This document shows positions 4,317 to 32,992 of a DNA stretch of 43,887 nt, piece by piece (position 1 is the first letter of the stretch; each line of letters starts with the position of its first letter). The stretch is from Syntrophaceae bacterium (GTDB lineage Bacteria; Desulfobacterota; Syntrophia; Syntrophales; Smithellaceae): positions 1-43,887 of the forward strand of contig JAFGKC010000036.1 in assembly GCA_016928765.1 (NCBI GenBank), read 5' to 3'. Both the position numbers and the translations under genes were made by a program. Below the pieces are notes generated by a model. That model was not told the origin of the DNA and did not search any database. It was given only the letters and a program-made list of their open reading frames with translations.

Positions 4317-4322
4317 GCAAGT

Positions 4323-4696: not shown

Positions 4697-4717
4697 TCAA
4701 ATCACCTTATTTAGGTT

Positions 4718-4740: not shown

Positions 4741-4795
4741 TTTAAAAAAAAATAAAAAGGCAATATTTTGCTATAGAGGCAGAGTGATTTGGTAA

Positions 4796-4882
4796 TTTTC
4801 TGGATTACCCGGTCGCGCCGGGTAATGACAGCACAGTTTTTTATTTTATTTCCGCGTGATAGCTTTGCAGTGATTTCGCCCG
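4796..4882. repeat. 87-nt direct repeat, copy 2 (functional carB 3' end plus downstream hairpin)
   Basis: Partner of 4230-4316. It contains the hairpin GGATTACCCGG-TCGCG-CCGGGTAATGAC (4802-4831). Confidence 0.85.
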
Positions 4883-7800
4883 TCCGTGTCCTTCGCGGAA
4901 CGCGGCAATTCCTTTGACGGCGGCAACCGCGGCGGCGGCGGTGGTAATATAAGGTATTTTATATTTGATCGCCGCTTTGCGGATGTAGGAATCGTCATGC
5001 TTGCTCAAACGCCCTGCCGGTGTGTTAATGACCAGTTGTATCTCGCCGTTTTTAATCGCATCGACAATGTTGGGGCGTCCTTCGTGCATTTTAAAAATTG
5101 GCTCAGATGAAATTCCTTTTTCGGCCAAAATTTTATTTGTTCCCTCGGTAGCCCTGATTTTGAAGCCGATTTTTTCAAAAGCGCGCGCCACTTCCAGCAT
5201 GCCGCTTTTGTCTATGTCCGCCACGGTGATAAGCACCGCTCCTTCGCCGGGAAGGCTCTGTCCCGTGGCTTCCTGCGCCTTGAAATACGCCAGGCCGAAA
5301 GAATCGGCCAGCCCCAAAACTTCTCCGGTAGAGCGCATTTCCGGACCCAGCACGGGATCAACTTCCTGATACATGTTAAAGGGGAAAACCGCTTCTTTCA
5401 CGCCGAAGTGGCGCAAAACTCTGGTTTTCAAATTTAAATCCTTAAGCTTTTTACCCAGCATGATTTGCGCGGCTACACGCGCCATGGAAATGTTGCACAC
5501 TTTGGAAACCAGCGGCACGGTGCGTGAAGCGCGCGGATTTGCTTCCAGTATATAAACAATATCGCTAGCGATGGCGTATTGAATATTCATTAAACCGACG
5601 ACGCCGAACTCGATAGCAATCTTTTTTGTGTAGTCATTAATTGTATGGATGTGTTTGGCCGGGATGCTGATGGGCGGAATCACACACGCCGAATCGCCGG
5701 AATGAACACCGGCAAGTTCAATATGTTCCATCACCGCCGGCACAAAAGCGTCTGTGCCGTCAGAAATTGCGTCTGCTTCCACTTCAATGGCGTTTTCTAA
5801 AAATTTGTCAATCAAGATGGGACGCTCCGGCGTAACGCCTACCGCGGCGGCAACATATCTTTTGAGCATTTCTTCATCATGAACAACTTCCATGCCGCGC
5901 CCGCCCAAAACGTAAGATGGGCGTACCATCAGCGGATAGCCGATTTTTCCGGCAACTTTGAGCGCTTGCTCCAGATTACTAGCCATTCCTGATTCCGGCA
6001 TGGGAATGCCCAGCTTATCCATCATTTCGCGAAAACGGTCGCGGTCTTCGGCTAGATCTATAGTTTCCGGCGATGTGCCGATAATTTTAACGCCGGCCTT
6101 CGCGAGCTCCGCCGCGATGTTCAATGGTGTCTGCCCGCCGAATTGACAAATCACGCCTTCGGGTTTTTCCTTTTCGTATATACTCAAAACGTCTTCCACG
6201 GTGAGCGGTTCGAAATAAAGTTTGTCGGATGTATCGTAATCGGTGGAGACGGTTTCCGGGTTACAGTTGACCATGATGGATTCAAAGCCTTCATCGCGCA
6301 GGGCGAAAGCCGCGTGCACACAGCAATAGTCAAACTCAATGCCTTGGCCGATACGGTTGGGCCCGCCGCCCAACACCATAATCTTGCGGCGGTTATCTAC
6401 GGATACTTTATCCGGCGCGTTGTAGGTGGAATAATAATAAGCCGCGTTTTCCACGCCGCTTACCGGCACGGCATCCCATGCCTCGGCAAGTCCCGCGGCC
6501 AGGCGCTGTTTGCGTATTTCTTCTTCTTTCTTTCCTAAAATTTGTGCGAGATACCTGTCGGCAAAACCGTCTTTTTTTGCCTGAATTAATAAATTATCAG
6601 GAAGCGATTTTCCTTTATAAGCAAGAATCTTTTCTTCCAATTCCACCAGTTCTTTCATCTGCTGGATGAACCATTTTTTAATGTACGTTTTAGCATGCAG
6701 CGCTTCCACTGTAACGCCTTTGCGCAGAGCTTCATACATGATGAATTGGCGTTCACTGGATGGTTCGGCAAGCATTTCCATTAAATCTTCAAGCGGTTTT
6801 TTGTTAAAGTCTTTGGCAAAGCCCAGACCGTAGCGGCCTTTCTCCAGGGAACGGATAGATTTAAGAAATGCCTCCTTGTAATTTTTGCCGATGCTCATTA
6901 CTTCGCCCACGGCGCGCATCTGCGTGCCGAGTTTATCCTGCGCGCCGGGGAATTTTTCAAAATCCCACCGGGCGAATTTTACCACCACATAGTCGCCGGA
7001 GGGCGTGTATTTATCCAAAGTGCCTTCACGCCAGTAGGGAATTTCATCGAGCGTTAAACCGGCGGCTAGCATCGAGGAAATCATGGCGATAGGGAAGCCG
7101 GTGGCTTTGGAAGCCAGCGCGGAGGAGCGCGATGTGCGCGGATTAATTTCAATCACCACCACTCTGTCGGTTTTGGGATCATGCGCGAATTGAACGTTTG
7201 TGCCGCCGATAACCTGAATTGCCTCCACGATATCATAAGAATACTTTTGCAGGCGTTTCTGCAGTTCTTCCGAGATGGTCAGCATGGGCGCGGTACAGTA
7301 GGAATCGCCGGTGTGCACACCCATGGCATCGACATTTTCAATAAAGCAAACGGTAATCATCTGGCCTTTGGCGTCGCGGACAACTTCCAGCTCCAGTTCC
7401 TCCCAGCCGATGACAGACTCTTCAATGAGTATCTGGCCGATTAAGCTTGCCGAAATTCCACGACTCGCGATAAGTCTAAGCTCTTCCAGATTATATACGA
7501 TGCCGCCGCCCGTGCCGCCCATAGTGTAAGCCGGACGGACGACCACCGGGTAGCCAAGCCCTGCGGCGATTTTTTCCGCCTCTTCCACAGTTGTGGCCGG
7601 TTCGCTTTTGGCATTTCGATGCCCAGCTTGTTCATCGTTTCTTTAAAAGCTATTCTATCCTCGCCGCGCTCGATAGCGTCCACCTGCACGCCGATAACTT
7701 TTACATTGTGTCTTTTTAAAATTCCCTTTTTGTGCAGCTCTGATGTCAGATTAAGGCCGGTCTGGCCGCCGAGGTTAGGCAGGATGGCATCCGGTTTTTC

Positions 7801-8040
7801 GTTTTCGATAATTTCGGTCAGCGCCTGTATGTTTAGGGGCTCGATATAAGTTACATCAGCCATGCCAGGATCGGTCATGATTGTTGCCGGATTAGAATTT
7901 ACCAGCACAACTGCATAACCAAGTTTGCGCAGCGCCTTGCAGGCCTGGGTGCCGGAATAGTCAAATTCACACGCTTGCCCGATAACGATAGGGCCGGAGC
8001 CGATAATCAGTACTTTTTTAATGTCGTCGCGTTTTCCCAT
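4841..8040 (-). CDS. carB: carbamoyl-phosphate synthase large subunit, split by a 1-nt frameshift at 7606-7609 (possible pseudogene or homopolymer sequencing error)
   Basis: The 199-aa ORF (7441-8040) carries the CarB N-terminus ([21 protein letters not shown]). The 915-aa ORF (4841-7588) carries the rest (two ATP-grasp halves and an MGS-like C-terminus). Adding one A to the A4 run restores ...[31 protein letters not shown]..., giving a total of 1066 aa. Confidence 0.9.
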
Positions 8041-16487: not shown

Positions 16488-18860
16488 TTGATGGCTGAAC
16501 AAATAAAGACAGAAGATAAAAAATTTAAGATACCAGAAATAATTCCCATCCTTTCACTGCAAAGCATTTTGGTTTTCCCTAAAATGATGGCGCCGCTGGA
16601 AGTGGCGGGTGGGCATTACGCCTTGCTTGTTGATGAGGCCATGACCAAGGACAGGCTGGTCGGCCTGATTATGTCGAAGCGGGAACTTACGGGCGAAGAC
16701 GATCGTTATAAGATGGAAGATTTGCACAACACCGGGACATGTTCCGTAATTTTACGCATGGCCAAAACGGCGGAAAACAAAACGCAGATGCTTTTGCAGG
16801 GTATCAGCCGTTTTCAGATTGTGGAGTTGGTGGAAGGCAAACCCTACCAGCAGGCGCGCATCAAAGTAATTGAGGACGCGGAAGCCAAAGATATTGAAAC
16901 AGAAGCGCTGATGGCCAATCTGCTGGTTTTGTTCGACAGAATTCTTAAGCTTTCTCCTTTCCTTCCACCGGAATTCGGGCCGATGGCCAAATCGATTACG
17001 GAAGCGGGGACGCTCGCGGATTTGATTGCGTCCATTATTAACGCTCCGGTTGAGGAAAAGCAGAAAATACTCGACAGCCTTGATGTAAAGACGCGCCTGA
17101 AAGAATTGACCCGCATGGTCAATCATCAGATGGAAGTTCTGGAGCTGGGCAACAAAATCCAGACCAAAGTCAAAGATGATATGGATAAAAGCCAGCACGA
17201 ATATTATCTGCGCCAGCAGCTCAAAGCGATTAAGCAGGAGCTGGGCGAAGCGGATGAAAATGCAGTGGAAACAGAGGAATACCGCAAAAAGATTGAAGAG
17301 AAAAAGGTGCCCGAAGAAGCCAAGAAAGAAGCGCTGCGCGAGTTGGAGCGGCTCTCGCGCATGAATCCCGCTTCCGCGGAATACACGGTATCATCCACTT
17401 ATCTGGATTGGATTACCGCCCTGCCTTGGAACGAATCCACTCCGGACAATCTTGATATCAAAAAAGCGCGGGAAGTCCTGGATGAAGACCATTATGGGCT
17501 GGAAAAAGCTAAAAAACGCATTATCGAATACCTTGCCGTACGCAAGTTAAAGCCGGATTCCAAAGGGCCGATTTTATGTTTTGTTGGCCCTCCGGGTACG
17601 GGAAAAACTTCTCTGGGGCATTCCATCGCGCGGGCGCTGGAGAGAAAATTCGTGCGCATCTCTATGGGCGGCGTGCGCGACGAGGCGGAAATCCGCGGCC
17701 ATCGCCGCACGTATATCGGCGCTTTGCCCGGCCGCGTTATTCAGGGATTGCGGCGCGCGGAATCGAACAATCCTGTTTTTATGCTCGACGAGATCGACAA
17801 GGTCGGCTCTGATTTTCGCGGCGATCCATCTTCGGCGCTTTTGGAAGTGCTTGATCCCCAGCAGAATAATTCTTTTTCCGATCATTATTTGGATGTGCCG
17901 TTCGATCTTTCGCATGTGATGTTTATCACTACGGCCAATATTCTGGATACGATTCCACCGGCTCTGCTCGACAGGCTCGAAGTAATAGAACTCACCGGTT
18001 ACACGCAGGTGGAAAAAGTTAAAATAGCTGAAAGATATTTGATTCCCCGGCAGTTGACCGAAAACGGCCTTAAGCCTGAGCAGCTCAAAATCAACAGCGC
18101 TGCTCTCGAAAGCATTATTAAAGGCTACACCAGAGAAGCGGGCGTGAGAAATCTCGAGCGGGAAATCGCTAATGTCTGCCGCGGTGTCGCCTCGGAAATT
18201 GCCGAAGAAAAAACCGAATCGAAAATAGTAACACCAAAAGAATTACACAAATATCTTGGGCCGGTGCGCGTTATGACGGATTTTGACGCGCGCATATCCA
18301 AACCCGGCATTGCCATAGGGCTTGCCTGGACGCCCGTGGGCGGCGATTTATTGTTCATTGAAGCGACCGCCATGAAAGGCAAGAAGAGCTTAACTTTGAC
18401 CGGTCAGTTGGGTGACGTGATGAAAGAATCTGCCGCCGCGGCTTTGAGCTTTATCCGCACCAATTCCAAGGCGCTGGGTGTCGCGGCTAATTTCTTTGAG
18501 GATTTGGATATTCACATCCATGTTCCCGCGGGCGCGATCCCCAAAGATGGCCCTTCGGCAGGCGTGACCATGCTCACCGCTCTGACTTCGCTTTTGACCA
18601 ACCGTAAGATAAAAAAGAATTTGGCGATGACAGGTGAAATCACCCTGCGCGGCGCGGTGCTTCCCGTAGGCGGCATCAAGGAAAAGGTGCTTGCCGCTTA
18701 CCGCGCGGGGATCAAAACCATAATTTTACCCGCATGGAATAAAAAGGATTTGGAAGACATTCCTCGCGATGTGCAAAAAAGCATCAAATTTCATTTTGTC
18801 GAAGATATGCTGGAAGTGCTGAAACTGGCGCTGGAAACTAAAGGTAAGAAAAAAAGGTGA
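16488..18860 (+). CDS. lon: ATP-dependent Lon protease (endopeptidase La)
   Basis: Walker [10 protein letters not shown] and catalytic Ser context PKDGPSAG. LonA N-domain present. The likely start is the ATG at 16491, after GGAGGA. Confidence 0.95.
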
Positions 18861-18941
18861 TTTGCTAAATGAAGTAAGATTGTATTGAAAATCGGAAAAT
18901 ACCGATTGGGTATATTAATTGTTTGGTAGCTAAATAAGGTA

Positions 18942-19553
18942 ATGTGCAACATGGTTGAAAATAAAATTAATAGATTCGTAATAGCTCAAGAGCAATTGCC
19001 TGAAAAATTTCCTACACATCGGCATCAATCGGAGTTTTGGGAAAGTTTAGGTCGGGCCGTTGGTACATTTGGATTTCTTGAGGAAGTGTTAGGTAAGGCC
19101 ATATTTGCTTTATCGGGCACACGACCTTACGAAGAAAATGAGATAAAAATTGCCTATGAAAAATGGCTCCCAAAACTGGAGCGAGCACTGTATGACCAGC
19201 TTGGAGGTCTTATAGATAGTTTTGGTAAAGCAGTTCGCGAACATCCAAAATCAAAAATAAATAACCTAGATGAACTGTTGGTGGATTTAAAAAAGGCTGC
19301 GGAAATGCGAAATCTATTATGCCACGGATCATGGGGACCTCCTGATGATTCCGGCGCCTCTCTGCCATTGTTTGTAAACCGCCAAATGGAAATCTTTGAT
19401 ACTAAGGTGGATTGTGCATTTCTCAATCAGGTGCAATTGCATGCGGCCAGTTTAGCATGTGAGGTGATAAACACTGTAACTCATATGGGCTTCCAATTCC
19501 CAGGGTCTTCTGGACCAGGAGTTAAAATCTGGAACAATGAGAAAAAGCAATGA
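18942..19553 (+). CDS. hypothetical protein with an HEPN-like Rx4H motif
   Basis: AAEMRNLLCHG (R123...H128; nt 19308-19325) sits in a region that reads as predominantly helical, with no other recognisable domain. Confidence 0.5.
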   Translation: MCNMVENKINRFVIAQEQLPEKFPTHRHQSEFWESLGRAVGTFGFLEEVLGKAIFALSGTRPYEENEIKIAYEKWLPKLERALYDQLGGLIDSFGKAVREHPKSKINNLDELLVDLKKAAEMRNLLCHGSWGPPDDSGASLPLFVNRQMEIFDTKVDCAFLNQVQLHAASLACEVINTVTHMGFQFPGSSGPGVKIWNNEKKQ

Positions 19554-19590
19554 ATATTCTTATGTTTGAATTTGATCAAAATAAATAGTT

Positions 19591-19646
19591 GCCCAACAAG
19601 GGCAATCCGGCCGATCGCTGCGCTCCGGCTAATTTTTTTGTTAGAT
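19591..19646 (+). repeat. attC-like repeat, copy D (56 nt)
   Basis: GCCCAACAAGGGCAATCCGGCCGATCGCTGCGCTCCGGCTAATTTTTTTGTTAGAT, bounded by GCCCAAC (RYYYAAC) and GTTAGAT (GTTRRRY). Confidence 0.5.
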
Positions 19647-19666
19647 GAGAAAATAAATAAATTATT

Positions 19667-20608
19667 ATGAATAGACCACTTGTTTTTATTAGTTATGCTG
19701 GCGATGAATTAGATTTGGCTGATTTTGTCAAAAATTTTCTACTACGAGTATCAGGTAATAAAATAGAAGTGTTTGTGGCGAAACGGGATATATCATCAGG
19801 AGCAGATCCTTTAAAAACTATGTTAAATGAAAAATTAAGAAATGCTGATGCAATTATTCCTATTTGTTCTTATAAGAGCAAGGATACTCCATGGCTATGG
19901 TGGGAATCGGCCTCAGTCTGGGCTAAAACTGGAAAAGTTCACCCTCTTTTCACGAATATTTCAGCAAATGTATTCGGCGGCCCACTCATTTTAGTTGTGC
20001 AAGGAAAGGAGTTTTTTACAAAACAAGAATTTTTTCAAACAATAGATGCGCTCTGCAAAAATGTAAATATAACAGTAACTCAATTGGATTTTACGGAAGA
20101 AGAGGCGGTTAGATATACTGAACTAGAGAAAGCTAGTTCAGTATATACTCATCCAGCAAGTATTAAGATCGACTATAAAATTATTGAGCAAACCCAACTC
20201 TACCATAAGTATTCTCTAATATTTGAAATACAAAATAAGAGCGAAATTGCTTTTGACGACATAGTATTAGATATATTCTTTCCCACAGAATATCTAATTA
20301 TAAAAAACTGGAATTATCCTTTTTTAGCTTCATCACTTCCAACGGATAAGCCGGGATATACATGTCTAACATTCATATTCAACAACATATCGGAGAAAGC
20401 TAAACAAAAATTTTCTCAATTTCTGCTGCCAGAAAAAATATTAAAAATATTTGGCGTAGATGAAGGAAGAATTAACAGCTTAGAATATGAGATGGATAAT
20501 AACAGATGGGGCAGTAGGTATAAATACAAAATAAGTTATAATTTGTATATAAACAAGAAAGCCCCTCAAAGGGGAAGCATAGATTTTTCTACCCTGCAAT
20601 TCTTTTAA
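19667..20608 (+). CDS. TIR-domain protein with an uncharacterised ~170-aa C-terminal domain
   Basis: The N-terminus matches the bacterial TIR pattern: VFISYAGDE...A.F....L.....IEVFVAKRDISSGADP......L.NADAIIPICS..Y..S.PWLWWE. E80 (nt 19904-19906) aligns with the WCxxE catalytic Glu. About 33% GC. Confidence 0.7.
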   Translation: MNRPLVFISYAGDELDLADFVKNFLLRVSGNKIEVFVAKRDISSGADPLKTMLNEKLRNADAIIPICSYKSKDTPWLWWESASVWAKTGKVHPLFTNISANVFGGPLILVVQGKEFFTKQEFFQTIDALCKNVNITVTQLDFTEEEAVRYTELEKASSVYTHPASIKIDYKIIEQTQLYHKYSLIFEIQNKSEIAFDDIVLDIFFPTEYLIIKNWNYPFLASSLPTDKPGYTCLTFIFNNISEKAKQKFSQFLLPEKILKIFGVDEGRINSLEYEMDNNRWGSRYKYKISYNLYINKKAPQRGSIDFSTLQFF

Positions 20609-20670
20609 TCAACATCTAATAAGTAGATCTAGCGGATCACGTGACGCTCCGGATAAATTTTTCGTTCACA
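20607..20670 (+). repeat. attC-like repeat, copy E (64 nt, boxes degenerate)
   Basis: AATCAAC...GATCACGTGACGCTCCGGATAAATTTTTCGTTCACA. The right half is conserved with the family, and the TIR gene's TAA stop overlaps the left box. Confidence 0.35.
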
Positions 20671-20844
20671 GCAGGTATTTCGCCACAAAGGATAAAAAGC
20701 CATTCCCGCGAATGGTAAAGTCTACCCCGATTGACAACGCATTTACAAATCTGGTATGGGCAACGTCGATTGCTTGCTTTGACTCATTTAGCTGACTGTG
20801 GAGCTGGCCAGCCAAGATGAACAAAATCCAGCATCAAAATATTA

Positions 20845-21753
20845 TTGTTTTATTTTAAATCTACAGGAGAAAAAATGAAAGACTTTAAAGGCAAGACCGC
20901 TTTCGTGACCGGCGGAGCGGAAGGAATCGGATATTTTATCGGCCAGATGCTGGCCAAACAGGGCATGAACGTGATGCTCTCAGATATCGACACGAAAATG
21001 CTGAATTCGGCTGTCAAAACACTTCAGGCCGAAGGTCTGAAAGTACAAGGCGTTCCCCTGGATGTCACGCTGAAAGAAGAGTGGATTGCCGCCGCCCAAA
21101 AGACGGTTGAAGCATTCGGCAAAGTGCATATGCTGGTCGGCAATGCCGGTGTGGGCCCAAACGGCGCGCATCACACCATCGGGGAAAACAACTGGCGTTG
21201 GGTGCTGGATGTAAATGTAATGGGGCTTGTTTTCGGTGGCGAGGTGTTCATCCCTCTTTTGAAAGCCCATGGCGAAGGCGGATATATTCTGAATGTCGCT
21301 TCCATGGCCGGAATTCAGGGCGTGTCTTATGCCGGTGCCTACTGCGCGAGTAAAGCGGCCGCCGTGAGTATCTCTGAATCCTGGCGCTCCGAACTCCAAA
21401 AAGACGGCATTGTGGTTTCGGTTTTGTGTCCGGCGTTTGTTAAATCCCGCATCTATGACAGCATGCGCAACCGCCAGGCGCGCTACGGTGGGCCGGTAAG
21501 TTTTGATGATCTGGTCAAGGAGAAGCCAAAACGGGCATTCAATAAAGAGCTGGTGGTTACCGGCATTGACACGGATATTGTTGCCAACCGCGTTTTGGAA
21601 GGGCTGAAAGAAGAAGAATTCTATATTTTTACACATCCCCATTTTCGCGAGATGATAGAGAAGCTCAACGCCGAGCTAATCAGCGCTATGGAAAAAGCGG
21701 AAGCCAGCCCGGCGCTGGAAAGCGTTCCGCGTAAAGGGGTTATTATTTATTGA
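20845..21753 (+). CDS. SDR-family oxidoreductase
   Basis: TGGAEGIG cofactor motif and YCASK (YxxxK). The likely start is the ATG at 20875, after AGGAGA. About 52% GC. Confidence 0.85.
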   Translation: MFYFKSTGEKMKDFKGKTAFVTGGAEGIGYFIGQMLAKQGMNVMLSDIDTKMLNSAVKTLQAEGLKVQGVPLDVTLKEEWIAAAQKTVEAFGKVHMLVGNAGVGPNGAHHTIGENNWRWVLDVNVMGLVFGGEVFIPLLKAHGEGGYILNVASMAGIQGVSYAGAYCASKAAAVSISESWRSELQKDGIVVSVLCPAFVKSRIYDSMRNRQARYGGPVSFDDLVKEKPKRAFNKELVVTGIDTDIVANRVLEGLKEEEFYIFTHPHFREMIEKLNAELISAMEKAEASPALESVPRKGVIIY

Positions 21754-21782
21754 AGAATTGCCGCACCAAGTAAACACAAAAT

Positions 21783-21825
21783 ATTTAACGACCGCGCAGC
21801 GCTCCGGCTGATTTTTTTGTTAGTG
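21783..21825 (+). repeat. attC-like repeat, copy F (43 nt, shortened left half)
   Basis: ATTTAACGACCGCGCAGCGCTCCGGCTGATTTTTTTGTTAGTG. Confidence 0.4.
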
Positions 21826-21844
21826 CTTTCATGGAGGTATTGAA

Positions 21845-22378
21845 ATGAATTTATATTTTAGATTAATCTGGACAATAATTCGATCATTTTTCAGGCCAAA
21901 GATCAATTTTTCTGATGAAGTAGTTCTTAAACTTCGTATTTTCCCCAATGATTTGGATATAAATCGCCATTTAAATAATGGTCGTTATTTAACCATCCTT
22001 GATTTAGGAAGCATTGATCTCTTTCTAAGAAGCGGTGTTTTAGTCCGAGCTATTAGAAATGGATTCAGACCAATGATAGGAGGACTAATCGTAACATACC
22101 GTAATAGTTTGTCGTTGTTTGAGCAGTGTACACTTACCATGAAGTTGAAAGCGTGGGATGATTATTGGAATTATTTTAAGTTTGAATTTCGGAAGGTAGA
22201 TGGACGGCTTTCTGCCTCCGGATATTTTAAGGGAGCGTTTGTATCAAAAAATGGTTTAGTCCCAAATAATGTGGCAGATGAAATTTTTGAATATAAGCAT
22301 GGCTTTTGTGAACTGCCTCCAGCGGTAGAAAATTGGATAAGGGCAGAAAATCATCTATCTGGAGAGAGTATCACCTAG
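21845..22378 (+). CDS. hotdog-fold acyl-CoA thioesterase family protein (4HBT_2-like)
   Basis: RIFPNDLDINRHLNNGRYLTILDLG pattern. GGAGG Shine-Dalgarno sequence 8 nt upstream. Confidence 0.65.
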   Translation: MNLYFRLIWTIIRSFFRPKINFSDEVVLKLRIFPNDLDINRHLNNGRYLTILDLGSIDLFLRSGVLVRAIRNGFRPMIGGLIVTYRNSLSLFEQCTLTMKLKAWDDYWNYFKFEFRKVDGRLSASGYFKGAFVSKNGLVPNNVADEIFEYKHGFCELPPAVENWIRAENHLSGESIT

Positions 22379-22379
22379 C

Positions 22380-22410
22380 AAAAAAAGCGGCCGCGAAAAA
22401 CCGGGCCGCT
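22380..22410 (-). terminator. Rho-independent terminator (reads as a terminator on the minus strand, downstream of pfk)
   Basis: Stem AGCGGCC / GGCCGCT around an 11-nt loop. On the minus strand it is followed by T7. Confidence 0.5.
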
Positions 22411-22443
22411 TATAATGCGTTATATGAAAACATCTTATTTCAT

Positions 22444-22518
22444 TAGCATTAAAAGTATTACACGCTTTGAAATTATCTTGCTCAAACTATTTTAAGCCGC
22501 AGATTGCGGGCGCTGTGA
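22444..22518. repeat. direct repeat, copy 1: remnant of the DEAD-box helicase 3' end plus downstream sequence
   Basis: Aligns to 32920-32992, with the right ~50 nt about 90% identical. On the minus strand it still reads SQRPQSAA-stop, versus SQRSQSAA-stop at the real helicase C-terminus. Confidence 0.75.
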
Positions 22519-23693: not shown

Positions 23694-26600
23694 TTATTCT
23701 GATAGCGATATACTTTGATCCATGCCCGCGGCTGGTATTTTTACCTCGACCAAATGTTCTTGCCGATCATTAATCAGTTGAATTGTCCGGTCGGGTCTCG
23801 CGAAGCCGTCCAGGGTGACACTCGTTTCTTCGTCGCTGTCATCTGTTTGCCGCACAGTAATTTTGTAAGAAGTCTCTCTAAACGTATAAAGAATTGTGAA
23901 CTCATTCCAATGGGCGGGAAGGCAGGGCTTAAAACTCATTTTATCCATATTGATCGAGAGTCCCAAAAGTGATTCCAGGATTAGCCGGTACATCCAGGCT
24001 GCGGAACCGGTAAACCATGTCCAACCGCCGCGGCCGACATGCGGCGAAACAGCATAAACGTCGGAAGCAACAACATAAGGCTCAACTTTATAGATAGCGA
24101 CTTGCGCTGGCGATAGCCCGTGATTGATCGGATTGATTATGGACAATAGATCCCACAGGCGCTGATGGTCGCCAAGCGCCGCAAAGGCCATGGCCGCCCA
24201 GATGGCCGCGTGTGTGTACTGGCCGCCATTTTCTCTCACGCCGGGTACATAACCTTTAATATAGCCTGGTTCCATTTCAGCTTTATCAAATGGCGGGTCA
24301 AGCAATTGGATCAGTTTTTTATCCCGGTGAACCAGAAGCAAATCTACGGATTCCATAGCTTGCCGCATTCGTTCAGGAGTACCGGCTCCCGATAGAACAG
24401 ACCAGCTTTGCGCAATCGAGTCAATACGGCATTCCATGTTTGTTGCCGATCCCAATAAAGATCCGTCATCGAAATAGGCGCGGCGGTACCACTGGCCGTC
24501 CCAACCTTCGCGCTCAATGCTTTGCCGCAACTTGCTTGCCTGGCTATGGCACAACTCGGCAAAAGCCATGTCACTTTTAAGACGGGCGATTTCGGCAAAC
24601 TTAATTAATATTTCGTAAAGGAAAAAGCCCATCCAGACACTTTCGCCTTGGCCTCCTTCTCCCACCTTATTCATACCGTCATTCCAATCGCCTGTGCCCA
24701 TCAGCGGCAGGCCATGACTGCCGAATCTTAGACCTTTTTTAATCGCTCGCGCGCAGTGATCGTATAAACTAGCTGTTTCATCAGCAATACCCGGCAGATC
24801 GTAATAAGAATCCTCGTCTTCTCTTACCTGGCGGCCATCAATAAATCTGACGAGTTCATCCAAAATGCTCAAATCACCGGTAGTGATAATATAGCGACTC
24901 ACGGCCAAAGGCAGCCACAGATAATCATCAGAACATCGTGTGCGCACTCCCCTTCCTGAAGGCGGATGCCACCAATGCTGGGCATCGCCATCCTGAAATT
25001 GACGGCTCGCGCACAAAAGCAGGTGCTGACGGACAAGAGCAGGCACGGCATAAACAAGCGCCATGGTATCCTGTAGCTGGTCACGGAATCCGAAGGCGCC
25101 GCCGGACTGGTAATAACCGTTACGCGCCCAAAGACGGCAGGCGATCGTCTGGTATAAAAGCCAGCCATTGGCCAGCACATTCACAGACACATCCGGAGTT
25201 TCTATTTGTATGATACCCAGAGTCTTGCGCCAGTATTCCTGCACCGCCTCCAGAACGCCTTGCGCGATGGTTGATCCTCTAAAACTTTTGACTGTGTTGC
25301 TGGCATCATCCGCGCCCCTTCTTCCGGTAACACCCAGCCTGAAGATTGTTTCCTGAACTTGCCCGGTGTCTAATTCCAAATTAACTTGGATGGCGCCGCA
25401 CGGATCCAGAGCCGCGCCAACTTTGCCGGAAAGTTGTGTCCGCGTCATTGCCGCAGGAGCAGAAAGCGCGCCATTGCGCCCGATAAACTCCGTTCTGTCT
25501 CCGGTGATGGTGCGATTTTTATCGTCTACATCAAAGAAAACCACCCGGTCGGCAAATTCCGCGTTGTAAGCGTTGCGCGCGAAAAGCGCTCCGCTTCCCG
25601 TATCGACTTCGGTGGTCACATGCATCATTGTTTTGGACCGCAAATCACCGAGTACCCACTCCACGTAACCTGTTACCGACAGGCTGCGGGATCGGCCCGA
25701 ATCATTGCGCAATTTTAATACGGTAAATTTAACCGGCGCGTCGATGGCCACATAGATCCACAGTTCTGATCGAATTCCTTCTTCCGTATGTTCGAAAACA
25801 CTATAACCGAATCCATGCCGGCTGATGTAGGGTATTGCCGAGCGGCAGGGCAGGGGCGCGGGCGACCAGAAATGACCAGTTTCTTCATCACGTATATAGA
25901 ATGCTTCTCCACTGAGATCGCTTACGGGATCGTTGTACCAGGGTGTCAGGCGGAACTCATGAGCATTCTCCTTCCATGTTGAAGCAGACCCGCTCTCTGA
26001 AACAACTGTTCCAAAGTGCGGGTTAGCCAATACATTCGCCCAGGGTGCCGGTGTCACCTGACCCGGTTTTGTCGTGATGACATATTCACGCCCGTCGGGT
26101 GTAAATCCGCCCAGTCCGTTTTCGAAAAGCAGAGGGGATGAAGGAATTTCCTCTGTCTTCCGGATTCCCGTATATTGCGCGCGAGTCGGTTTGAAACGCG
26201 GAACAACTGTTTCTCTAAGAGAACGGCGGCTGATTTGCTCCGCCAGAGTTCCCCAGTTATCCTTGATTACTATACGGGCAACAGTTTGCAGAAGAATCCT
26301 GTCTTCATTGGATATCTGATCACCGGGCCGGAGAAATATGCCACCTGGCTTATCTACAACTTTTGCTTCCCTCCCTGCTGTAATCATGTCTTTTATCTGG
26401 TCGTGGAGGAATTGTCTGTAGATTGCATTATCTTCATTCCAAATCATTAAATCCACCGCCAGGCCTTTTAAGCGCCAGTACGCGTGCGCCTGTTCGAGTT
26501 GACGCACAAGTTCGATGTTTGCGTGGTCACCGATCTGGAGCAATACAATGGGCAAATCTCCGGAAATGGCGTAACCCCATAAACCAGATTGCCCTCGACG

Positions 26601-29600
26601 GTTTTTGATGATTATTTTCTGATCAGCGCGCAGTGATGCATTGCCGTAAATGACGCAACCGGCCAATTGTCCGTAAAGTTGAGCGTCGGCTTCCGAGGCA
26701 TTGATTTGATGCAAGACTACCTGGCTGTGGGTCCACGCCAGATCAAAAACACGATCAGCAAGACGCTGATCGTGATATTTTTCGGAAAGGCCAAGCGCCT
26801 GCTCCCGGGTTTCACTGATACCGGAAACAATATCAATCATCACCGATTCTCCCGCGTCCAGCTTAACGCGGCAACGTATCGCCGCTATGGGATCGAGAAC
26901 GGAGCCTTGAGTATTCGAAAGCGTTTCTAAAATATTTTCAGACCAACGCATCGCCTGAGGATCGGCCAAAGTATTTCCACGGCCGATAAACTTTAAGCGA
27001 TCCGTTTCATAGGAAACATCCTTGTTTGGTTTACCGTGCAAGGCCATCAGGTGAAACATCCAGCGCGAAGGTTCATCTTTTGAACGCGGCCTTCTTGTGC
27101 AGAGAATTGTCTGGCGTTCACGGATGATTTCCGTCTGAACAAAAAGATTGGCGAACGCGGGATGCAGCGCGTCAGCTGCGGGCTCCGCCAGAACAATTTC
27201 CGCGTAACTGGTTATATCCAGATCTCTTGGCTTTCGCGAACGGTTGGTGATGCGAACACGGCGCAGTTCAATATCATCCTCGGGGGATACGGCTATTTGA
27301 GTGTGTGTGTCGATTTCATGATCGCGACGCCGAAACTCAACTCTGGCGTCAGAGAAAATTGCTTCATATCTTTCCGGCTGTTTCAGAGTTGGTTGATAAG
27401 CTGTTGACCAAAACTCTCCATTGGTCGTATCGCGAATATAACAGAATGTTCCCCAATTATCGCGGGTAGAGTCTTCACGCCAGCGTGTGACGGCCAGATT
27501 GTTCCAGCGGCTGTATCCACCCCCCGCGTTGGTGATCATCACATGGTATCTTCCATTGGACAATAATTGCACCTTCGGTACTGGTGTATGGGGAGTGTTA
27601 AATATGCGCGCCGGAAACTCCTGAGTGATTGTAGCTTTACGTATGGTAGCGTCCTCGGAGATCTGCCGGTAGAAGGCCACCGCCCGGGGAATACGCTCCT
27701 GTAGCAGCAGCATGGTTGATTGAAACATCGGCTCGGACGCGAAACGTTTTTGCATCGGACAATCAAGCAGCAGATGGGACAAGGCCAGCAAACTCATGCC
27801 CTGGTGATGAGCCATGAAGGATTTGACCACAACACTCGATTTACCGCGAGGCAGACGCGAAGAAGTGTAATCTATCGCTTCGTAAAAACCATATGGCCCT
27901 TCCATGCCCTCTCTGGCCAGCTGCTGCAAATTCAGGCAGGCTTCTTCCGGCGCGACCATCAACGCCAGAGCTGAAGCATACGGCGCGACAACCAGATCAT
28001 CGGAAAGTCCTCGTTTGAGGCCGAGCCCCGGAACACCAAAGGCACGATACTGGTAGTTTTGATGGACATCTATTGTACTGTAACCGGATTCGGAAATGCC
28101 CCAAGGCACGCCACGGCTTTTTCCATAGTCAATCTGCCTGCGGACAGCCGCCGTGTATGTCTGATCCAACAGTGTGCTTTCATAAGTGGGCATCACCAAA
28201 AGCGGCATAAGATATTCGAACATTGAACCGTCCCAGGAAAGAAGAACCGGATATCTCCCCGGATTTGTCAGCAGGCGTCCCAGGGCAAACCAGTTTTCCT
28301 GAGGCAACTGTCCCTGCGCGATACCGATAAAACTGCAAAATCTGGCCTCTGAAGCCAAGAGGTCATAGTAACTTGCGTCCCGGCGGCGCTCAGTGGTGTT
28401 ATAGCCAATAGTCAACAGATGACTTCCTTTATCATAAAGAAAACTATAATCCATATCAGCAAAGTCATTTGCTTGTGCTGCCAAGCGGTCAATTGCCGTT
28501 ATTCTTTCCAAGGCGCGCTGAGAGCCTTCCTTGATCATCCGGCGAAAATCGGAAAACCACGCTTTCTCTTCGGCAGTTGCGTTGATGCTAAGCATGCTTT
28601 CGATTACGTTTTTTAATTTCTTTTTTGATGTTATCAATTCCCGTAACGTGGGAATTTCCATAGTTTCAAGAAACTCGCTTAGCCTGGCTGAAGGGGGTGT
28701 AAGTGTAATCCACGGACAGAAAAAAGAAATTTCTTCCAAGGCATCGGAACATTGATGCACCAGAGTTTTTACCCACCACAAGGCATCACTATCGTTGTTT
28801 GTGTCAAAGGCGCGGGCAAGATCAATTGAGGCGTTTGCCAGATCTTCGAGGCGCCGTCGCAATGGCTTAATCATATTTTTATCGGGATCCGGCAATGAGG
28901 ACAGATATTTTTGAAAATCGGCAAGCTGTTTTGGCGCTCCCGCTCCCGCAACTTCAGCCAGAACAGTAATAGTGTCGCCAATGCCGTTAAACCATTGAAA
29001 TCCGCAAATCTTCTGATCGGGAAGCTCAATAAGTCCCCGCCGTAACGTTAATAAGTGACCGCTGAGATTTCCACTATCCACGGTGGATATGTAATGAGGC
29101 CGCAGTGTGGCTAGGCTTTGTGTGTCGTACCAGTTATAAAAGTGACCACGATAGCGCTGCAATTTCCCCATCGTATGGAAGGCATCGGTGGTGCGTTCGA
29201 TTAAGTCTCCCAGCGAAATATAACCAAAATCATACGCGGATAAATTTGCAAGCAAGGCCAGTCCCATGTTTGTCGGCGATGTGCGATGCGCGATGACGGC
29301 AGCCGGATGTTCCTGATAGTTATCCGGCGGCAGCCAATTATCATCGGGCCCGACAAATGTTTCGAAGAACGCCCAGGTTTTACGGGCAATTTTTCTCAGA
29401 AAAATCATTTGCTCTTCTTTAAGTTTTATAACACCGGACGCAATTGGCCTGCTGACCCACCACGTAACCCCGGGAGATAGAAACCACAGAACCAGGACAA
29501 ACAAAGCCGCGCCAAGAGCGCCGGGTCTGGCCATCATGAGATAAATAAATAGCGCTAAAGAAAGTAAAGGAGCTATCCACATCGACCGGCAGGAAGCGGC

Positions 29601-32456
29601 AAAGGTATTCAGGTTGCGGCTCGCCAAATTTCCGGAAGGATTCCACTCCAGCAGCCGCTTATGTGAAACGTGCATTCGCCAGAGAGTACGCGCAATCGCG
29701 TCCAGGCTAAAAAATGCTTCATAGGGAAGGCAAACGAGGGTGTACAAAGTCTGAACAAAGTGCCTGCGGGCCTGACGCAGTGCTGTGAAAAAGTGTTGGT
29801 TCCATAAGACATCTCCCGGCTTGCGGAACAGTTCCAGAAGTATTTCGCCCGCGGGAGGAATAAGAAGAATGCCGATCACCAATATTGTCCATAACCAAAC
29901 CGGAGAAATGATGGCCCATCCCATAATTAACATCAAGGTCAAAGCCGCGGGAACCAGAGAGCGCCGGAGGTTGTCGAAAATCTTCCACTGGGAAAGCCAG
30001 GATATTTTATTTTTCTGCTGTCTGCCGTCTGCGGTGGGCACGGCCGATCTCAGCCAACTGGCAATTTGCCAGTCTCCGCGAATCCAGCGATGTCTGCGGT
30101 TCACATCTACGTGGTATTGAGAGGGGTATTCCTCGTATAGCTGAACATCAGAAAGCAAGCCCGAACGCGCATAACAACCTTCTATCAGATCATGGCTGAG
30201 TATCCGGTTTTCCGGGAAGCGGCCACCCAGAGCCTGCTCAAACGCATCGACATCATAAATGCCTTTACCTATGTATGAACCTTCACCAAAAACATCCTGG
30301 TAGATATTGGAAACAACGCGCGTATAAGGGTCAAAGCCGGTTTCACCCCCCCAGAGGCGCGCGTACCAAGATTTGCCGTCACCCGATAAGGTTTCGGCGA
30401 TACGCGGCTGAAGAATGCCGTAACCTTCACAAACGCGTTGCCGCGCTTCATCATAACGTGGACGATTCAGCGGATGGGCCATCGCCCCCACGAATTGCTG
30501 CGCGGAATCGCGAGGAAGTTGAGTATCCGTATCTAGCGTAATGACGTACTTCACATTAGATAATATTTCTGGAATACCAATGACGTGAGAGAAACAATCT
30601 TTTGCGCCGCCGCGCAGAAAAGCGTTCAGCTGGGCGATCTTTCCACGCTTGCGCTCATAACCCATCCAAATTTGCTCCTCGGGATTCCAGCTACGCGGAC
30701 GATGGAAGAGAAAGAAAGTTCCTCCTTTTGTGTCCCTATACTTATCATTTAGTTCTTCAATCCTCTTTTGAGCCAACTGAATCAGCTCATCGTCCGTGGA
30801 AGTTTTTTCTTCATGGGCATCGAGGAAGTCGGTTAGCAGGGCAAAATGCAGATTGTTATCCCGATTGGCCAAAAATCTTATTTCCAGTGATTCAACCAGG
30901 GCTTCTACGTTTTGAGCGGACGAAAGCATAGTCGGGATTACCACCAGCGTGCTTGATTCCGTAGGAATTTCCCTGGAAAAATCCATGCGCGGCAGCAGAT
31001 AAGGATGGGCGAAAAGCGTAGCCAGCCAGTTGATCAGAGCTACGGCGAGACTGCTTGCGCCCAGAATAAAAATAACAGCGATAGGCACAAGTATCCAGCC
31101 GTGCAAACTATGGTTTTGAACTTTTAGAAGTAAGCCGAAAGCCGTGATGAGAGTGATGGCCATGATGGCCGAAAGATATGTGAACAACGGAAACCTGGAA
31201 AAGATTTGACGGATGGACTCAGCGATGAGTTTGCGTACCTGAGCCCTTTGTTCAAGCTTGGGCAATCCCTTGTCGATTAGATAAAAACCAACATGAGTCT
31301 CCCGATCGCCATTTCTGCACGCGGATGAGGCTTGGCGTGATAAATCAATGGCTAAACGCGCCACGTCACTTTCGGAGAGGCGGCTTTTTTTTGCTATTTT
31401 TTCCACGGCGTGACGATAACGGTCTCTGGTGGTAAAATCCATTTTGATATAGACATCACATGGGTCTTCACGAAGAGTCTGTTCAACAACGCTCATTGTC
31501 TCCACAAACTCATGCCAGTTCATGGATGTCAGAAACCTCAGGCTGCCGATACTGTTACTCACAGATACCTGGTCGGCGGCCTGTTGCTGATTTTCGGAGC
31601 GGACCAGCTGTTCAATCGTCAAATGAGACTCGGCAAGCCGCTGCTCAATCCAGGTGATGGGCAGAGCCAGCGCCGGACTTTGTCCTTGCAAACGGCGCGT
31701 AAATTCCGCGACAAATGAACTTGTCATCGGTTGATCGGACCGTGCCATGTCGGCAATTACCAAAACGAGGCTTTTAGGATCGCTCCTCGCGATATTGGCC
31801 ATCTGGTTCGCCCAATAATCGGCGCGCTCCCTGTAGGCAATGCCAGCGGTAATTCGCGTTCCAATGCGCCTTAGATTTTCGATCAGCGCCAGCCGCAACA
31901 TAATCGGAATTGCCCACAACTCGCCCAATTTCAGAGGGGTTATTGTCTGGTAGGCCGTAACAAAGTTAATGAGACTTTCCATATCCACCCGTCCATCACC
32001 GTGAGAGATTGTCTCAAGGGCAATATCATATACACGGGGGAGCCCGGCCGATGGCCCGTTTTGCAGACGCGGCAATCCCCGGCTATAGCCTTTGGACAGG
32101 TGTCTTTTAGCCAGACGAATATGCTCTTCAATTAAGTAAAAGTTATCCAGAAGCCATTCTTCGGCAGGAGCTATTGTGCTGTTATCTTTAACCGCATCTG
32201 TCAGCTGGTTGCATGTTTTAATCAGAACATCTTCGTTGTTATGAAGCCGTGTCAGAAGCTGTTCCGAAGCCCTGGCACGAGTCAATTTATGCACATGCGC
32301 CAGCGCTTTGCCGCGCTGTTTCATCTGTTCGGAGCTTAGCAGTTCCGAGCGCAGCGGTAATTCATCAGTGGATTGTTTTTTTCCGAAAGCGCCGCCGGGA
32401 AAAGATTTTTTCAAGCCCGGCAATGTCGCTAAAGCTTTTTTATCGTTTAACTTCAA
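23694..32456 (-). CDS. cyclic beta-1,2-glucan synthase-like giant protein (NdvB/ChvB/Cgs family), 2920 aa
   Basis: TM segments flank a GT84-type domain (VITLDTDTQLPRD, GYGILQPR, SHDLIEG, RHRWIRGDWQ). The C-terminal region is GH94 / cellobiose-phosphorylase-like (GGAFGFRDQLQD, GTGDWNDGMN). TTG start preceded by GAGGAGG 8 nt upstream. Confidence 0.85.
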   Translation of the reverse strand: MKLNDKKALATLPGLKKSFPGGAFGKKQSTDELPLRSELLSSEQMKQRGKALAHVHKLTRARASEQLLTRLHNNEDVLIKTCNQLTDAVKDNSTIAPAEEWLLDNFYLIEEHIRLAKRHLSKGYSRGLPRLQNGPSAGLPRVYDIALETISHGDGRVDMESLINFVTAYQTITPLKLGELWAIPIMLRLALIENLRRIGTRITAGIAYRERADYWANQMANIARSDPKSLVLVIADMARSDQPMTSSFVAEFTRRLQGQSPALALPITWIEQRLAESHLTIEQLVRSENQQQAADQVSVSNSIGSLRFLTSMNWHEFVETMSVVEQTLREDPCDVYIKMDFTTRDRYRHAVEKIAKKSRLSESDVARLAIDLSRQASSACRNGDRETHVGFYLIDKGLPKLEQRAQVRKLIAESIRQIFSRFPLFTYLSAIMAITLITAFGLLLKVQNHSLHGWILVPIAVIFILGASSLAVALINWLATLFAHPYLLPRMDFSREIPTESSTLVVIPTMLSSAQNVEALVESLEIRFLANRDNNLHFALLTDFLDAHEEKTSTDDELIQLAQKRIEELNDKYRDTKGGTFFLFHRPRSWNPEEQIWMGYERKRGKIAQLNAFLRGGAKDCFSHVIGIPEILSNVKYVITLDTDTQLPRDSAQQFVGAMAHPLNRPRYDEARQRVCEGYGILQPRIAETLSGDGKSWYARLWGGETGFDPYTRVVSNIYQDVFGEGSYIGKGIYDVDAFEQALGGRFPENRILSHDLIEGCYARSGLLSDVQLYEEYPSQYHVDVNRRHRWIRGDWQIASWLRSAVPTADGRQQKNKISWLSQWKIFDNLRRSLVPAALTLMLIMGWAIISPVWLWTILVIGILLIPPAGEILLELFRKPGDVLWNQHFFTALRQARRHFVQTLYTLVCLPYEAFFSLDAIARTLWRMHVSHKRLLEWNPSGNLASRNLNTFAASCRSMWIAPLLSLALFIYLMMARPGALGAALFVLVLWFLSPGVTWWVSRPIASGVIKLKEEQMIFLRKIARKTWAFFETFVGPDDNWLPPDNYQEHPAAVIAHRTSPTNMGLALLANLSAYDFGYISLGDLIERTTDAFHTMGKLQRYRGHFYNWYDTQSLATLRPHYISTVDSGNLSGHLLTLRRGLIELPDQKICGFQWFNGIGDTITVLAEVAGAGAPKQLADFQKYLSSLPDPDKNMIKPLRRRLEDLANASIDLARAFDTNNDSDALWWVKTLVHQCSDALEEISFFCPWITLTPPSARLSEFLETMEIPTLRELITSKKKLKNVIESMLSINATAEEKAWFSDFRRMIKEGSQRALERITAIDRLAAQANDFADMDYSFLYDKGSHLLTIGYNTTERRRDASYYDLLASEARFCSFIGIAQGQLPQENWFALGRLLTNPGRYPVLLSWDGSMFEYLMPLLVMPTYESTLLDQTYTAAVRRQIDYGKSRGVPWGISESGYSTIDVHQNYQYRAFGVPGLGLKRGLSDDLVVAPYASALALMVAPEEACLNLQQLAREGMEGPYGFYEAIDYTSSRLPRGKSSVVVKSFMAHHQGMSLLALSHLLLDCPMQKRFASEPMFQSTMLLLQERIPRAVAFYRQISEDATIRKATITQEFPARIFNTPHTPVPKVQLLSNGRYHVMITNAGGGYSRWNNLAVTRWREDSTRDNWGTFCYIRDTTNGEFWSTAYQPTLKQPERYEAIFSDARVEFRRRDHEIDTHTQIAVSPEDDIELRRVRITNRSRKPRDLDITSYAEIVLAEPAADALHPAFANLFVQTEIIRERQTILCTRRPRSKDEPSRWMFHLMALHGKPNKDVSYETDRLKFIGRGNTLADPQAMRWSENILETLSNTQGSVLDPIAAIRCRVKLDAGESVMIDIVSGISETREQALGLSEKYHDQRLADRVFDLAWTHSQVVLHQINASEADAQLYGQLAGCVIYGNASLRADQKIIIKNRRGQSGLWGYAISGDLPIVLLQIGDHANIELVRQLEQAHAYWRLKGLAVDLMIWNEDNAIYRQFLHDQIKDMITAGREAKVVDKPGGIFLRPGDQISNEDRILLQTVARIVIKDNWGTLAEQISRRSLRETVVPRFKPTRAQYTGIRKTEEIPSSPLLFENGLGGFTPDGREYVITTKPGQVTPAPWANVLANPHFGTVVSESGSASTWKENAHEFRLTPWYNDPVSDLSGEAFYIRDEETGHFWSPAPLPCRSAIPYISRHGFGYSVFEHTEEGIRSELWIYVAIDAPVKFTVLKLRNDSGRSRSLSVTGYVEWVLGDLRSKTMMHVTTEVDTGSGALFARNAYNAEFADRVVFFDVDDKNRTITGDRTEFIGRNGALSAPAAMTRTQLSGKVGAALDPCGAIQVNLELDTGQVQETIFRLGVTGRRGADDASNTVKSFRGSTIAQGVLEAVQEYWRKTLGIIQIETPDVSVNVLANGWLLYQTIACRLWARNGYYQSGGAFGFRDQLQDTMALVYAVPALVRQHLLLCASRQFQDGDAQHWWHPPSGRGVRTRCSDDYLWLPLAVSRYIITTGDLSILDELVRFIDGRQVREDEDSYYDLPGIADETASLYDHCARAIKKGLRFGSHGLPLMGTGDWNDGMNKVGEGGQGESVWMGFFLYEILIKFAEIARLKSDMAFAELCHSQASKLRQSIEREGWDGQWYRRAYFDDGSLLGSATNMECRIDSIAQSWSVLSGAGTPERMRQAMESVDLLLVHRDKKLIQLLDPPFDKAEMEPGYIKGYVPGVRENGGQYTHAAIWAAMAFAALGDHQRLWDLLSIINPINHGLSPAQVAIYKVEPYVVASDVYAVSPHVGRGGWTWFTGSAAWMYRLILESLLGLSINMDKMSFKPCLPAHWNEFTILYTFRETSYKITVRQTDDSDEETSVTLDGFARPDRTIQLINDRQEHLVEVKIPAAGMDQSISLSE

Positions 32457-32583: not shown

Positions 32584-32919
32584 AATTATCAGCAACTGTT
32601 TGCCTTTTGAAAACAAAAAATTAAAACAGGGACATCGTGAAAAAAGAAAAATAACAAATATGGTGGAACGAAAAATGTCTTATAAACGTTTCGCTTTTAA
32701 TACATTAAATCGTTACAAAATTCAATGCCAATGTTATGTCCATTCCGGCGCAAGGTGCTATTCTGACACAAGTGAGGTTTATTATAGGGCTCAATCAACA
32801 CAAAATAATTAAAGAAATATCAGCATAAAAACCGGGTTTTGCTAAATAGGATTGACAAAGTAGGCTTAACCTTTGACCAAGCTTGATGTCACAGAACAAC
32901 AGAGTATCTTCTGCTTAGT

Positions 32920-32992
32920 TAGCATTAAAATATCGATTGCTTAGAAATTATCCTGCTCAAATTTTTTAAGCCGCGGATTGCGAGCGCTGTGA
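32920..32992. repeat. direct repeat, copy 2 (functional helicase 3' end plus downstream sequence)
   Basis: Partner of 22444-22518. Confidence 0.75.

Follow-up and report, generated by a model that had tools for sequence, protein, structure and literature searches.

A probable integrase-less integron cassette array, headed by a putative attI core, downstream of lon in a Syntrophaceae bacterium

Introduction

Downstream of the lon gene of a Syntrophaceae bacterium, consecutive genes of different base composition are each followed by a copy of a short repeat. Are these genes integron cassettes and, if so, what marks the place at which they entered, and may an integrase still act there? The DNA analyzed, hereafter called the window, is a whole NCBI contig of 43,887 nt (JAFGKC010000036.1) from the metagenome-assembled genome (MAG) of this bacterium; it contains two such arrays, one 3' of lon and one 3' of carB. 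We find that the stretch from 18886 to 22425 is very probably an integrase-less integron cassette array, i.e. a group of clustered attC sites without an integron-integrase (CALIN), in which an attI core of about 35 nt is followed by four co-oriented cassettes, each ending in an attC site. This is largely a known kind of element; the part worth following is an attI-headed, integrase-less array with evidence of cassette turnover. To our knowledge, integrons have barely been described among anaerobic syntrophs.

CALINs have been defined as two or more clustered attC sites with no intI in the neighbourhood, and an attC site as an R box, an unpaired spacer and an L box containing an extrahelical base, closed by a terminal structure that varies (Cury et al. 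2016, PMC4889954). Loss of the integrase is one of the origins listed for CALINs, and, with attI not known for most integrons, that survey was unable to look for this site (Cury et al. 2016, PMC4889954). The integrase IntI also inserts cassettes at GWT sites genome-wide; this attG route has been proposed as an origin of small CALINs and of single attC sites lacking an integrase (SALINs), and attG sites are said to resemble attI neither in sequence nor in structure (Loot et al., bioRxiv 10.1101/2022.09.11.507474). Among the cassette arrays known, half are without an integrase, and how these arose and how active they are is still being asked (Cury et al. 2016; Loot et al.).

The repeats downstream of lon as probable attC sites

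An earlier, sequence-only reading of the window had reported three repeat copies, D, E and F, after genes that it labelled HEPN-like, TIR and SDR, and they do follow the corresponding open reading frames (ORFs) at 18942-19553, 19667-20608 and 20845-21753. Copy D was read back at 19591-19646 (plus strand) as the 56-mer quoted, and it carries both core sites of an attC, R'' GCCCAAC (19591-19597) and R' GTTAGAT (19640-19646). Copy E, given as 64 nt with a conserved right half, ends at 20670 and measures 58 nt from CATCTAA (20613) or 64 nt from AATCAAC (20607), depending on the start chosen; its right half alone is conserved. As an attC site, E covers 20613-20670 (plus strand), with R'' ATCTAAT and R' GTTCACA (20664-20670). 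The 43 nt quoted for copy F were found at 21783-21825, conservation being limited to the 3' half; the whole site (21775-21825, plus strand) has an intact L' and R' GTTAGTG and a degenerate 5' half. Neither the two core sites of E nor the 5' end of F conform to the strict RYYYAAC/GTTRRRY consensus. The block CGCTCCGGCTGATTTTTTYGTTAG, which had been singled out as the most conserved of all copies, occurs four times in the window with up to three mismatches, against 0.00 expected from 100 shuffles, and a repeat search recovered the resemblance of D to inverted copies 17 kb away (84% complementary to 2866-2915 and 79% to 2248-2299).

A covariance model of the repeat, R1, was trained on 87 copies, those of the window excluded. 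It finds eight sites in the window, all within the two arrays and all co-oriented with the ORFs, and no credible site in the rest of the window. D scores 59.5 bits (E 6e-17), with two non-standard pairs in the alignment, E scores 26.3 bits (E 1.6e-5), with seven, and F scores 21.1 bits (E 1e-3). The lon array extends one unit beyond what the sequence-only reading had noticed, as the thioesterase gene forms a fourth cassette with an attC of its own at 22373-22425 (plus strand), made of R'' ACCTAGC, a GC-rich stem and R' GTTATAT (22419-22425). This site is divergent and has no R1 match in the window at E ≤ 10; its hairpin has a folding energy of −11.9 kcal/mol (z −3.0), and it aligns with the equivalent site of L131 (18.6 bits with R1), relative to which its R'' is mutated from ACCCAAC. 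(Labels such as L131 denote related genome or metagenome stretches that were compared with the window.) D is the best-preserved attC of the lon array, while E, F and the thioesterase attC are decayed. A terminator-like site is called on the minus strand within the thioesterase attC (22403-22388), and this attC may also serve as a bidirectional terminator shared with pfk.

The repeat is not confined to the window. An exact-pattern scan of one genome per species found its block in more than 118 genome stretches, a count that is a lower bound; most are from Syntrophales, Smithella, Syntrophus and other delta-proteobacterial MAGs. Full-length tyrosine recombinases adjoin the repeats in several of these loci; they are 46-50% identical to IntI1 and match TIGR02249, the integron-integrase model (cutoff 265 bits), at 426-466 bits. 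Among these relatives of the window, TIGR02249 matches of 356-466 bits lie beside attC sites of the family in L008, L035, L040, L075, L106 and L233. L008 has the textbook layout, with intI on one strand and short co-oriented ORFs on the other, a repeat after each.

The R and L boxes of 150 family members are 82% paired, as compared to 22-48% when the pairing partners are slid along the sequence. The L box is 94-96% paired, and compensatory changes are seen in five of nine pairs, an example being CAGCCG/CGGCTG to CACCCG/CGGGTG; none of 500 shuffles reached the observed covariation. The unpaired base of L'' is A or C in 141 of the 150 top strands, giving T or G on the bottom strand, the two bases that are generally extrahelical in descriptions of attC sites. 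The GTT of R' is present in 146-149 of the 150 copies and is followed by R-rich positions and a Y, with random composition immediately beyond.

R1 also recovers attC_aadA1 of a class 1 integron, a 60-mer with an exact match in 1962 plasmids, at its exact borders and without any non-standard pair. The two kinds of site share their architecture in register: R'' YCTAAC, a 5-6-nt spacer, L'' ..AGCCGA, L' CGGCT.. and R' GTTAGRY. They differ in that attC_aadA1 reaches just 14.4 bits (E 0.055 in 12 kb), which implies that beyond the boxes the two have no primary-sequence relationship; R1 missed the dfrA1 attC of the same class 1 locus. D, E and F are very probably integron attC sites that separate independently acquired cassettes.

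Cassettes of the lon array

All four cassettes lie on the plus strand, as does lon (16488-18860; Pfam Lon_C, LON_substr_bdg and AAA), which forms the upstream flank. Cassette 1 (18922-19640) consists of the 'HEPN-like' ORF and attC D, and cassette 2 (19641-20664) of the TIR ORF (Pfam TIR_2) and attC E. Cassette 3 (20665-21819) contains the SDR ORF (Pfam adh_short, 5e-45), preceded by a leader of about 180 nt, and attC F, and cassette 4 (21820-22419) the thioesterase ORF (21845-22378; Pfam 4HBT_2) and the divergent attC. The G|TT borders of cassettes 1, 2 and 4 are shown by comparison with homologous loci; those of cassette 3 are predicted from its flanking G|TT sites. The wide spread in base composition that had been reported was recovered, with GC fractions of 0.409, 0.328 (TIR), 0.494 (SDR) and 0.368 (thioesterase) for cassettes 1 to 4, next to 0.496 for lon and 0.485 for pfk. 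In line with the proposal that the cassettes were acquired independently, the TIR, 'HEPN-like' and thioesterase genes all recur in unrelated genome contexts.

Homologs of the cassette-1 protein, 84-94% identical at the amino acid level, are encoded in L235 and L233. In L235 the gene makes up a cassette by itself, and its 27-nt leader after G|TT is that of the window. In L233 it is located inside a complete integron, behind a methyltransferase gene; the attC that follows it there is near-identical to D, with a compensatory CACCCG/CGGGTG change. No profile confirms the name given to this gene: the ORF has no Pfam match at E ≤ 1, and its Rx4H motif (RNLLCH) was seen by eye only. The family comprises proteins of about 200 aa without Pfam annotation (1629 matches), and its members are at least 60% identical across Geobacter, Bacteroidetes, Parachlamydia, Methylobacter and Kiritimatiellales. 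Such identity across distant phyla suggests that the gene is highly mobile.

Homologs of the TIR gene with 79-90% identity are found in L126, L122 and L127, in contexts unrelated to that of the window: a ddl-TIR pair, a series of SMC-like, TIR, methyltransferase and rhomboid genes, and an array with SEFIR/TIR, FRG and HamA genes. Homology to the window starts exactly at (G)TTAGATGAG and stops at the GTT of the attC by which the gene is accompanied; on either side of this unit the sequences are unrelated. The L127 ortholog of attC E is canonical (ATCTAAC..TTCCAGCCG..CGGCTGAA..GTTAGGC; −20.7 kcal/mol, z −6), indicating that E in the window is a decayed copy. The L127 array (2941-7182) unites the TIR-cassette homolog with genes for DUF8245, SEFIR/TIR, FRG and HamA (Hachiman-type) and resembles a cassette-built defence island. 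PADLOC gave a weak bSEFIR match for the TIR protein of the window (6e-6) and no match for the other three cassettes.

An 88% identical homolog of the thioesterase is encoded by the first cassette of L131, directly after TATATAATTAATTGTT, and a 96% identical one in L130, behind a different cassette and an attC of 45.9 bits. Homology among these loci begins a few nucleotides after the GTT. In the leader of the SDR gene, a hairpin at 20700-20715 (CCATTCCCGCGAATGG) resembles those associated with carB (CATTACCCGG..CCGGGTAATC); it is called terminator-like on the minus strand.

A putative attI core at the head of both arrays

Both arrays start 3' of a housekeeping gene, as the sequence-only reading had it: the end of lon is at 18860, and its description of the carB side was likewise confirmed. 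They appear to start where they do because a remnant of an attI core heads each of them. Next to lon this remnant (..AAAATACCGATTGGGTATATTAATTGTT) is an nhmmer match at 18886-18923 (plus strand), in which the crossover GTT occupies 18921-18923, 63 nt past the lon stop codon. That of the first array (GTATATTAATTGTC) is located at 4179-4195 on the minus strand, downstream of carB and of a hicBA insertion, and contains an exact 13-mer and a weak nhmmer match (4195-4180). In both arrays the first cassette comes after this 13-mer, GTATATTAATTGT, and a T or C next to it (18910-18922, plus strand; 4180-4192, minus strand); the 13-mer belongs to a core of about 35 nt that heads the two (..GGTATATTAATTGTT; ..CCAASTTGGTATATTAATTGTT). 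In the lon array 13 of the 13 proximal bases of the core are present.

Exact copies of the 13-mer stand at array heads beside lon, truA, dxs, ilvB, a plsC-like acyltransferase gene, a DEAD helicase gene and ddl. Scanning metagenomes with an extended 23-mer yielded 99 stretches, of which the 50 instances with at least 1.5 kb upstream were used to measure the distance to intI. A divergent intI starts 440-490 nt from the core GTT in ten of these, and an eleventh has intI about 1.8 kb away; two further instances carry internally deleted intI fragments. The four core-associated IntI proteins that were tested match TIGR02249 at 401-418 bits. As the motif lies about 460 nt from a divergent intI in related loci, we take it to be the attI core of the complete integrons of this lineage. 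Conservation between integron lineages is limited to the last 35 nt or so, the stretch kept in the window. About 80% of the occurrences of the core have lost intI. Of 58 informative instances, 28 have attC sites of the family downstream of the core and on its strand, and none has them on the opposite strand only.

In its full length of about 250 nt, the attI module contains a 14-nt inverted repeat with arms 121-127 nt apart. A long attC-like hairpin was considered for it and rejected, the z-score being only −1.4 and the centre base showing no covariation (15 C/C cases). This makes double-stranded protein-binding sites more likely, and the inverted repeat is probably a pair of such sites. At E ≤ 1, Rfam gives no match for the L053 copy of the attI module. 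The core might contain an extended −10 promoter (TGgTATATT), but this was set aside as speculation; the window copy has an extra G, and no promoter was called.

A second attI type (TTTTCCACTTATTACACTGTT; ..CCACTTATTGCRCTGTT) adjoins intI in L008, L033, L035, L040, L114 and L233. It also occurs without an adjacent intI, in L004 (371-391), L031 (554-574) and L078, which looks phage-like (1969-1989 and 2860-2880), so more than one attI lineage may have lost intI and kept the attI core. In addition, an attI module of about 266 nt without intI is embedded inside arrays, in L160 (1238-1506) and also in L145, L190, L192, L202, L111 and L218. It starts at the R' GTT of the upstream attC and ends at its own GTT, after which another cassette follows; this corresponds either to tandem arrays after intI loss or to behaviour like that of an ORF-less cassette.

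Absence of intI and apparent cassette turnover next to lon

Searching the 43.9-kb contig by tblastn with four IntI queries gave no intI (best E > 1). The lon array is not a complete integron: lon ends 63 nt before the crossover GTT, and neither intI nor a pseudogene of it is present. Three attC sites detected by R1 and the divergent one lie within 2.9 kb; with two or more attC sites and no intI on the contig, the lon array is a CALIN.

The lon gene and the next 63 nt are common to the window, L130 (89-91% nucleotide identity) and L003 (86-88%), and the three diverge directly after the GTT at 18921-18923; up to 18923, the lon region has 86-89% of its nucleotides in common with L003 and L130. 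From there the window continues with the 'HEPN-like', TIR and SDR cassettes, L130 with a two-gene cassette (encoding 189 and 270 aa) and L003 with at least four other cassettes. The window and L130 reconverge inside attC F and have the thioesterase gene and pfk in common. Proximal cassettes are variable and a distal one is conserved, as predicted for insertion at attI. The junction of the presumed intI deletion is common to the three alleles, so that such a deletion would predate their divergence. Ordinary operon terminators had been named as the alternative, should the units of ORF and repeat prove syntenic and invariant among relatives; they are not, since L130 and L003 share lon and the junction and carry different cassettes.

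Weighing the explanations

The least credible of the explanations considered is that the repeats are ordinary operon punctuation, intrinsic terminators or elements like repetitive extragenic palindromes or miniature inverted-repeat transposable elements, with no role in recombination. In each copy a T run does come after a short GC stem (CGGCTGATTTTTT), folding energies are nothing out of the ordinary, and E and F resemble decaying repeats. However, no terminator-like site, defined as a GC-rich stem of 5 bp or more with a T tract behind it on the transcribed strand, is called on the plus strand at D, E or F, and their identity as intrinsic terminators was rejected. The copies are located only 3' of co-oriented ORFs, in two arrays; they adjoin IntI in other genomes, the units of gene and repeat travel as blocks bounded by G|TT, their content differs between close relatives, and Rfam has no family matching the window at gathering thresholds. 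It is very unlikely, too, that the cassettes were inserted at an arbitrary secondary site 3' of lon (attG, a minimal GWT) and not at a remnant integron platform. Insertion by IntI at GWT sites across the genome is documented (Loot et al., bioRxiv 10.1101/2022.09.11.507474), and the GTT used here is only 63 nt past a housekeeping gene, with no remnant of intI. An attG is defined by GWT alone, without resemblance to attI or attC, whereas a conserved 35-nt attI core precedes this GTT; these 35 nt are not specific to lon, as the same core stands beside truA, dxs, ilvB, plsC-like, ddl and DEAD-helicase genes, and in complete integrons it sits about 460 nt from a divergent intI.

The reading of the locus as a CALIN on a remnant attI platform has points against it as well. 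No integrase is known for this genome, of which the contig was searched, and no more than half of the instances of the attI core have a detectable attC of the family downstream. On neither strand do D, E and F reach a better minimum free energy than shuffles do (z −0.8 to +0.5), and the minimum-free-energy structure of D is a different one from the canonical hairpin. The check by score and fold proposed in the sequence-only reading did not refute the attC reading: D, E and F score as members of the family, and free folding does not set them apart from shuffled sequence. Copy B of the first array does show the canonical bottom-strand fold (−7.9 versus −2.9 kcal/mol for the top strand, z −1.8); for the 56-nt sites D, E and F free folding has no power, and it is used here as evidence neither way. 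Because E, F and the thioesterase attC are without R''/L'' features, most of the array may be non-recombinogenic, and exchange of entire arrays by homologous recombination, instead of in-situ IntI activity, could account for the differences among alleles. The third alternative is a dead relic in which the integrase was deleted, the three alleles date from old divergence or from homologous exchange, and site-specific turnover at the attI core no longer goes on. We regard this as unlikely, though far less so than either punctuation or attG insertion. Three of the four attC sites are degraded, the contig has no intI, and integrase loss is among the origins of CALINs (Cury et al. 2016, PMC4889954). 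Against a relic, the lon-attI deletion junction is shared, yet the proximal cassettes all differ while the thioesterase cassette is common to the window and L130; such polarity is expected from insertion at attI after the deletion, and attC D is well preserved.

A possible mechanism

Exchange of integron cassettes is carried out by IntI, which cuts between G and TT of R', in the folded single-stranded attC and in the double-stranded attI. New cassettes accordingly enter proximal to attI, leaving older ones distal and decaying. At the lon locus the integrase would have to act in trans, provided from elsewhere in the genome or by an incoming element. The attI core may be what remained after deletion of intI and of most of the intI-attI spacer, and it could still be used by such a trans-acting IntI. 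The cassettes would be transcribed by read-through from lon.

We can extend this proposal only tentatively. The attI core of about 35 nt might by itself be a sufficient landing pad served in trans, and the genome might then contain a distributed integron, composed of many integrase-less, attI-headed mini-arrays that directly adjoin the 3' ends of housekeeping genes with high expression (among them lon, carB, ddl, dxs and truA), with read-through transcription and with exchange via one remote or transient integrase. If true, a distributed integron would give CALINs a concrete origin and function. The same lon-attI junction in three lineages, with differing proximal and shared distal cassettes, makes a clean comparative case. 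Retention of the core without intI in about 80% of instances allows the idea of live CALINs served in trans to be tested, and the locus yields an attC model and an attI core with which cassettes, including TIR- and defence-type ones, can be mined from anaerobic syntrophs.

Comparison with known systems

The lon array agrees with described CALINs (Cury et al. 2016, PMC4889954) in that two or more attC sites of one orientation stand within 4 kb of each other and intI is absent from the surroundings, in its small size (3-4 sites) and in cassettes that do not encode antibiotic resistance and mostly have no assigned function. It differs in that its head retains the conserved attI core of the corresponding complete integrons, and in that the window has two arrays, 17 kb apart and inverted. 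With the attG/SALIN route (Loot et al., bioRxiv 10.1101/2022.09.11.507474) it has in common cassettes outside a complete integron, beside housekeeping genes and oriented for read-through; here, however, a conserved attI core takes the place of the bare GWT target, and arrays are found in place of single cassettes.

Some sedentary chromosomal integrons, an example being the Vibrio cholerae superintegron with its VCRs, have homogeneous attC sites, and comparison with this type shows further parallels. In both, the attC sites are highly similar within a lineage, cassette content varies among relatives, and the cargo includes toxin-antitoxin, lipocalin, defence-like and unidentified genes. In contrast to the sedentary integrons, there is no adjacent intI here, the attC sites are about 56 nt long with a terminal loop of about 12 nt, and each genome has many small arrays and not one large array.

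The carB-side array and neighbouring features

The five attC copies of the first array, placed here by their R1 matches, all lie on the minus strand. A (3259-3332), B (2861-2935) and C (2241-2315) score 45.2, 78.3 and 60.4 bits with R1, and G (1625-1704) and H (513-591) score 13.5 and 18.7 bits. The cassette ORFs of this array include a lipocalin, a DUF6790 protein and an esterase.

Between carB and the first array lies a hicBA pair on the minus strand, with a hicB-like gene at 4505-4696 and hicA at 4323-4508. HicA matches Pfam at 7.9e-11, and the match of the HicB-like protein is weak. A 90-nt direct repeat, 90% identical, flanks the pair (4227-4316 and 4793-4882) and is made up of the last 42 nt or so of carB, its stop codon and a hairpin (TGTCATTACCCGGCGCGACCGGGTAATCCAG). 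This layout suggests that the hicBA pair was inserted site-specifically, with the 3' end of the target gene duplicated in the process. The carB gene itself is split into two overlapping ORFs on the minus strand, 7441-8040 and 4841-7588 (overlap 7441-7588). Either a frameshift or a mistake in the assembly thus seems to interrupt a carbamoyl-phosphate synthase large subunit that is intact in other respects.

Beyond the lon array, the sequence 3' of the DEAD-box helicase gene is duplicated 3' of pfk, the two copies (22443-22518 and 32919-32992) being 84-88% identical, and in L003 the array runs straight into the helicase gene. The duplication and the L003 layout together suggest that a segment of about 10.4 kb, containing pfk and an ORF of 2920 aa (23694-32456), was inserted or rearranged in the lineage of the window.

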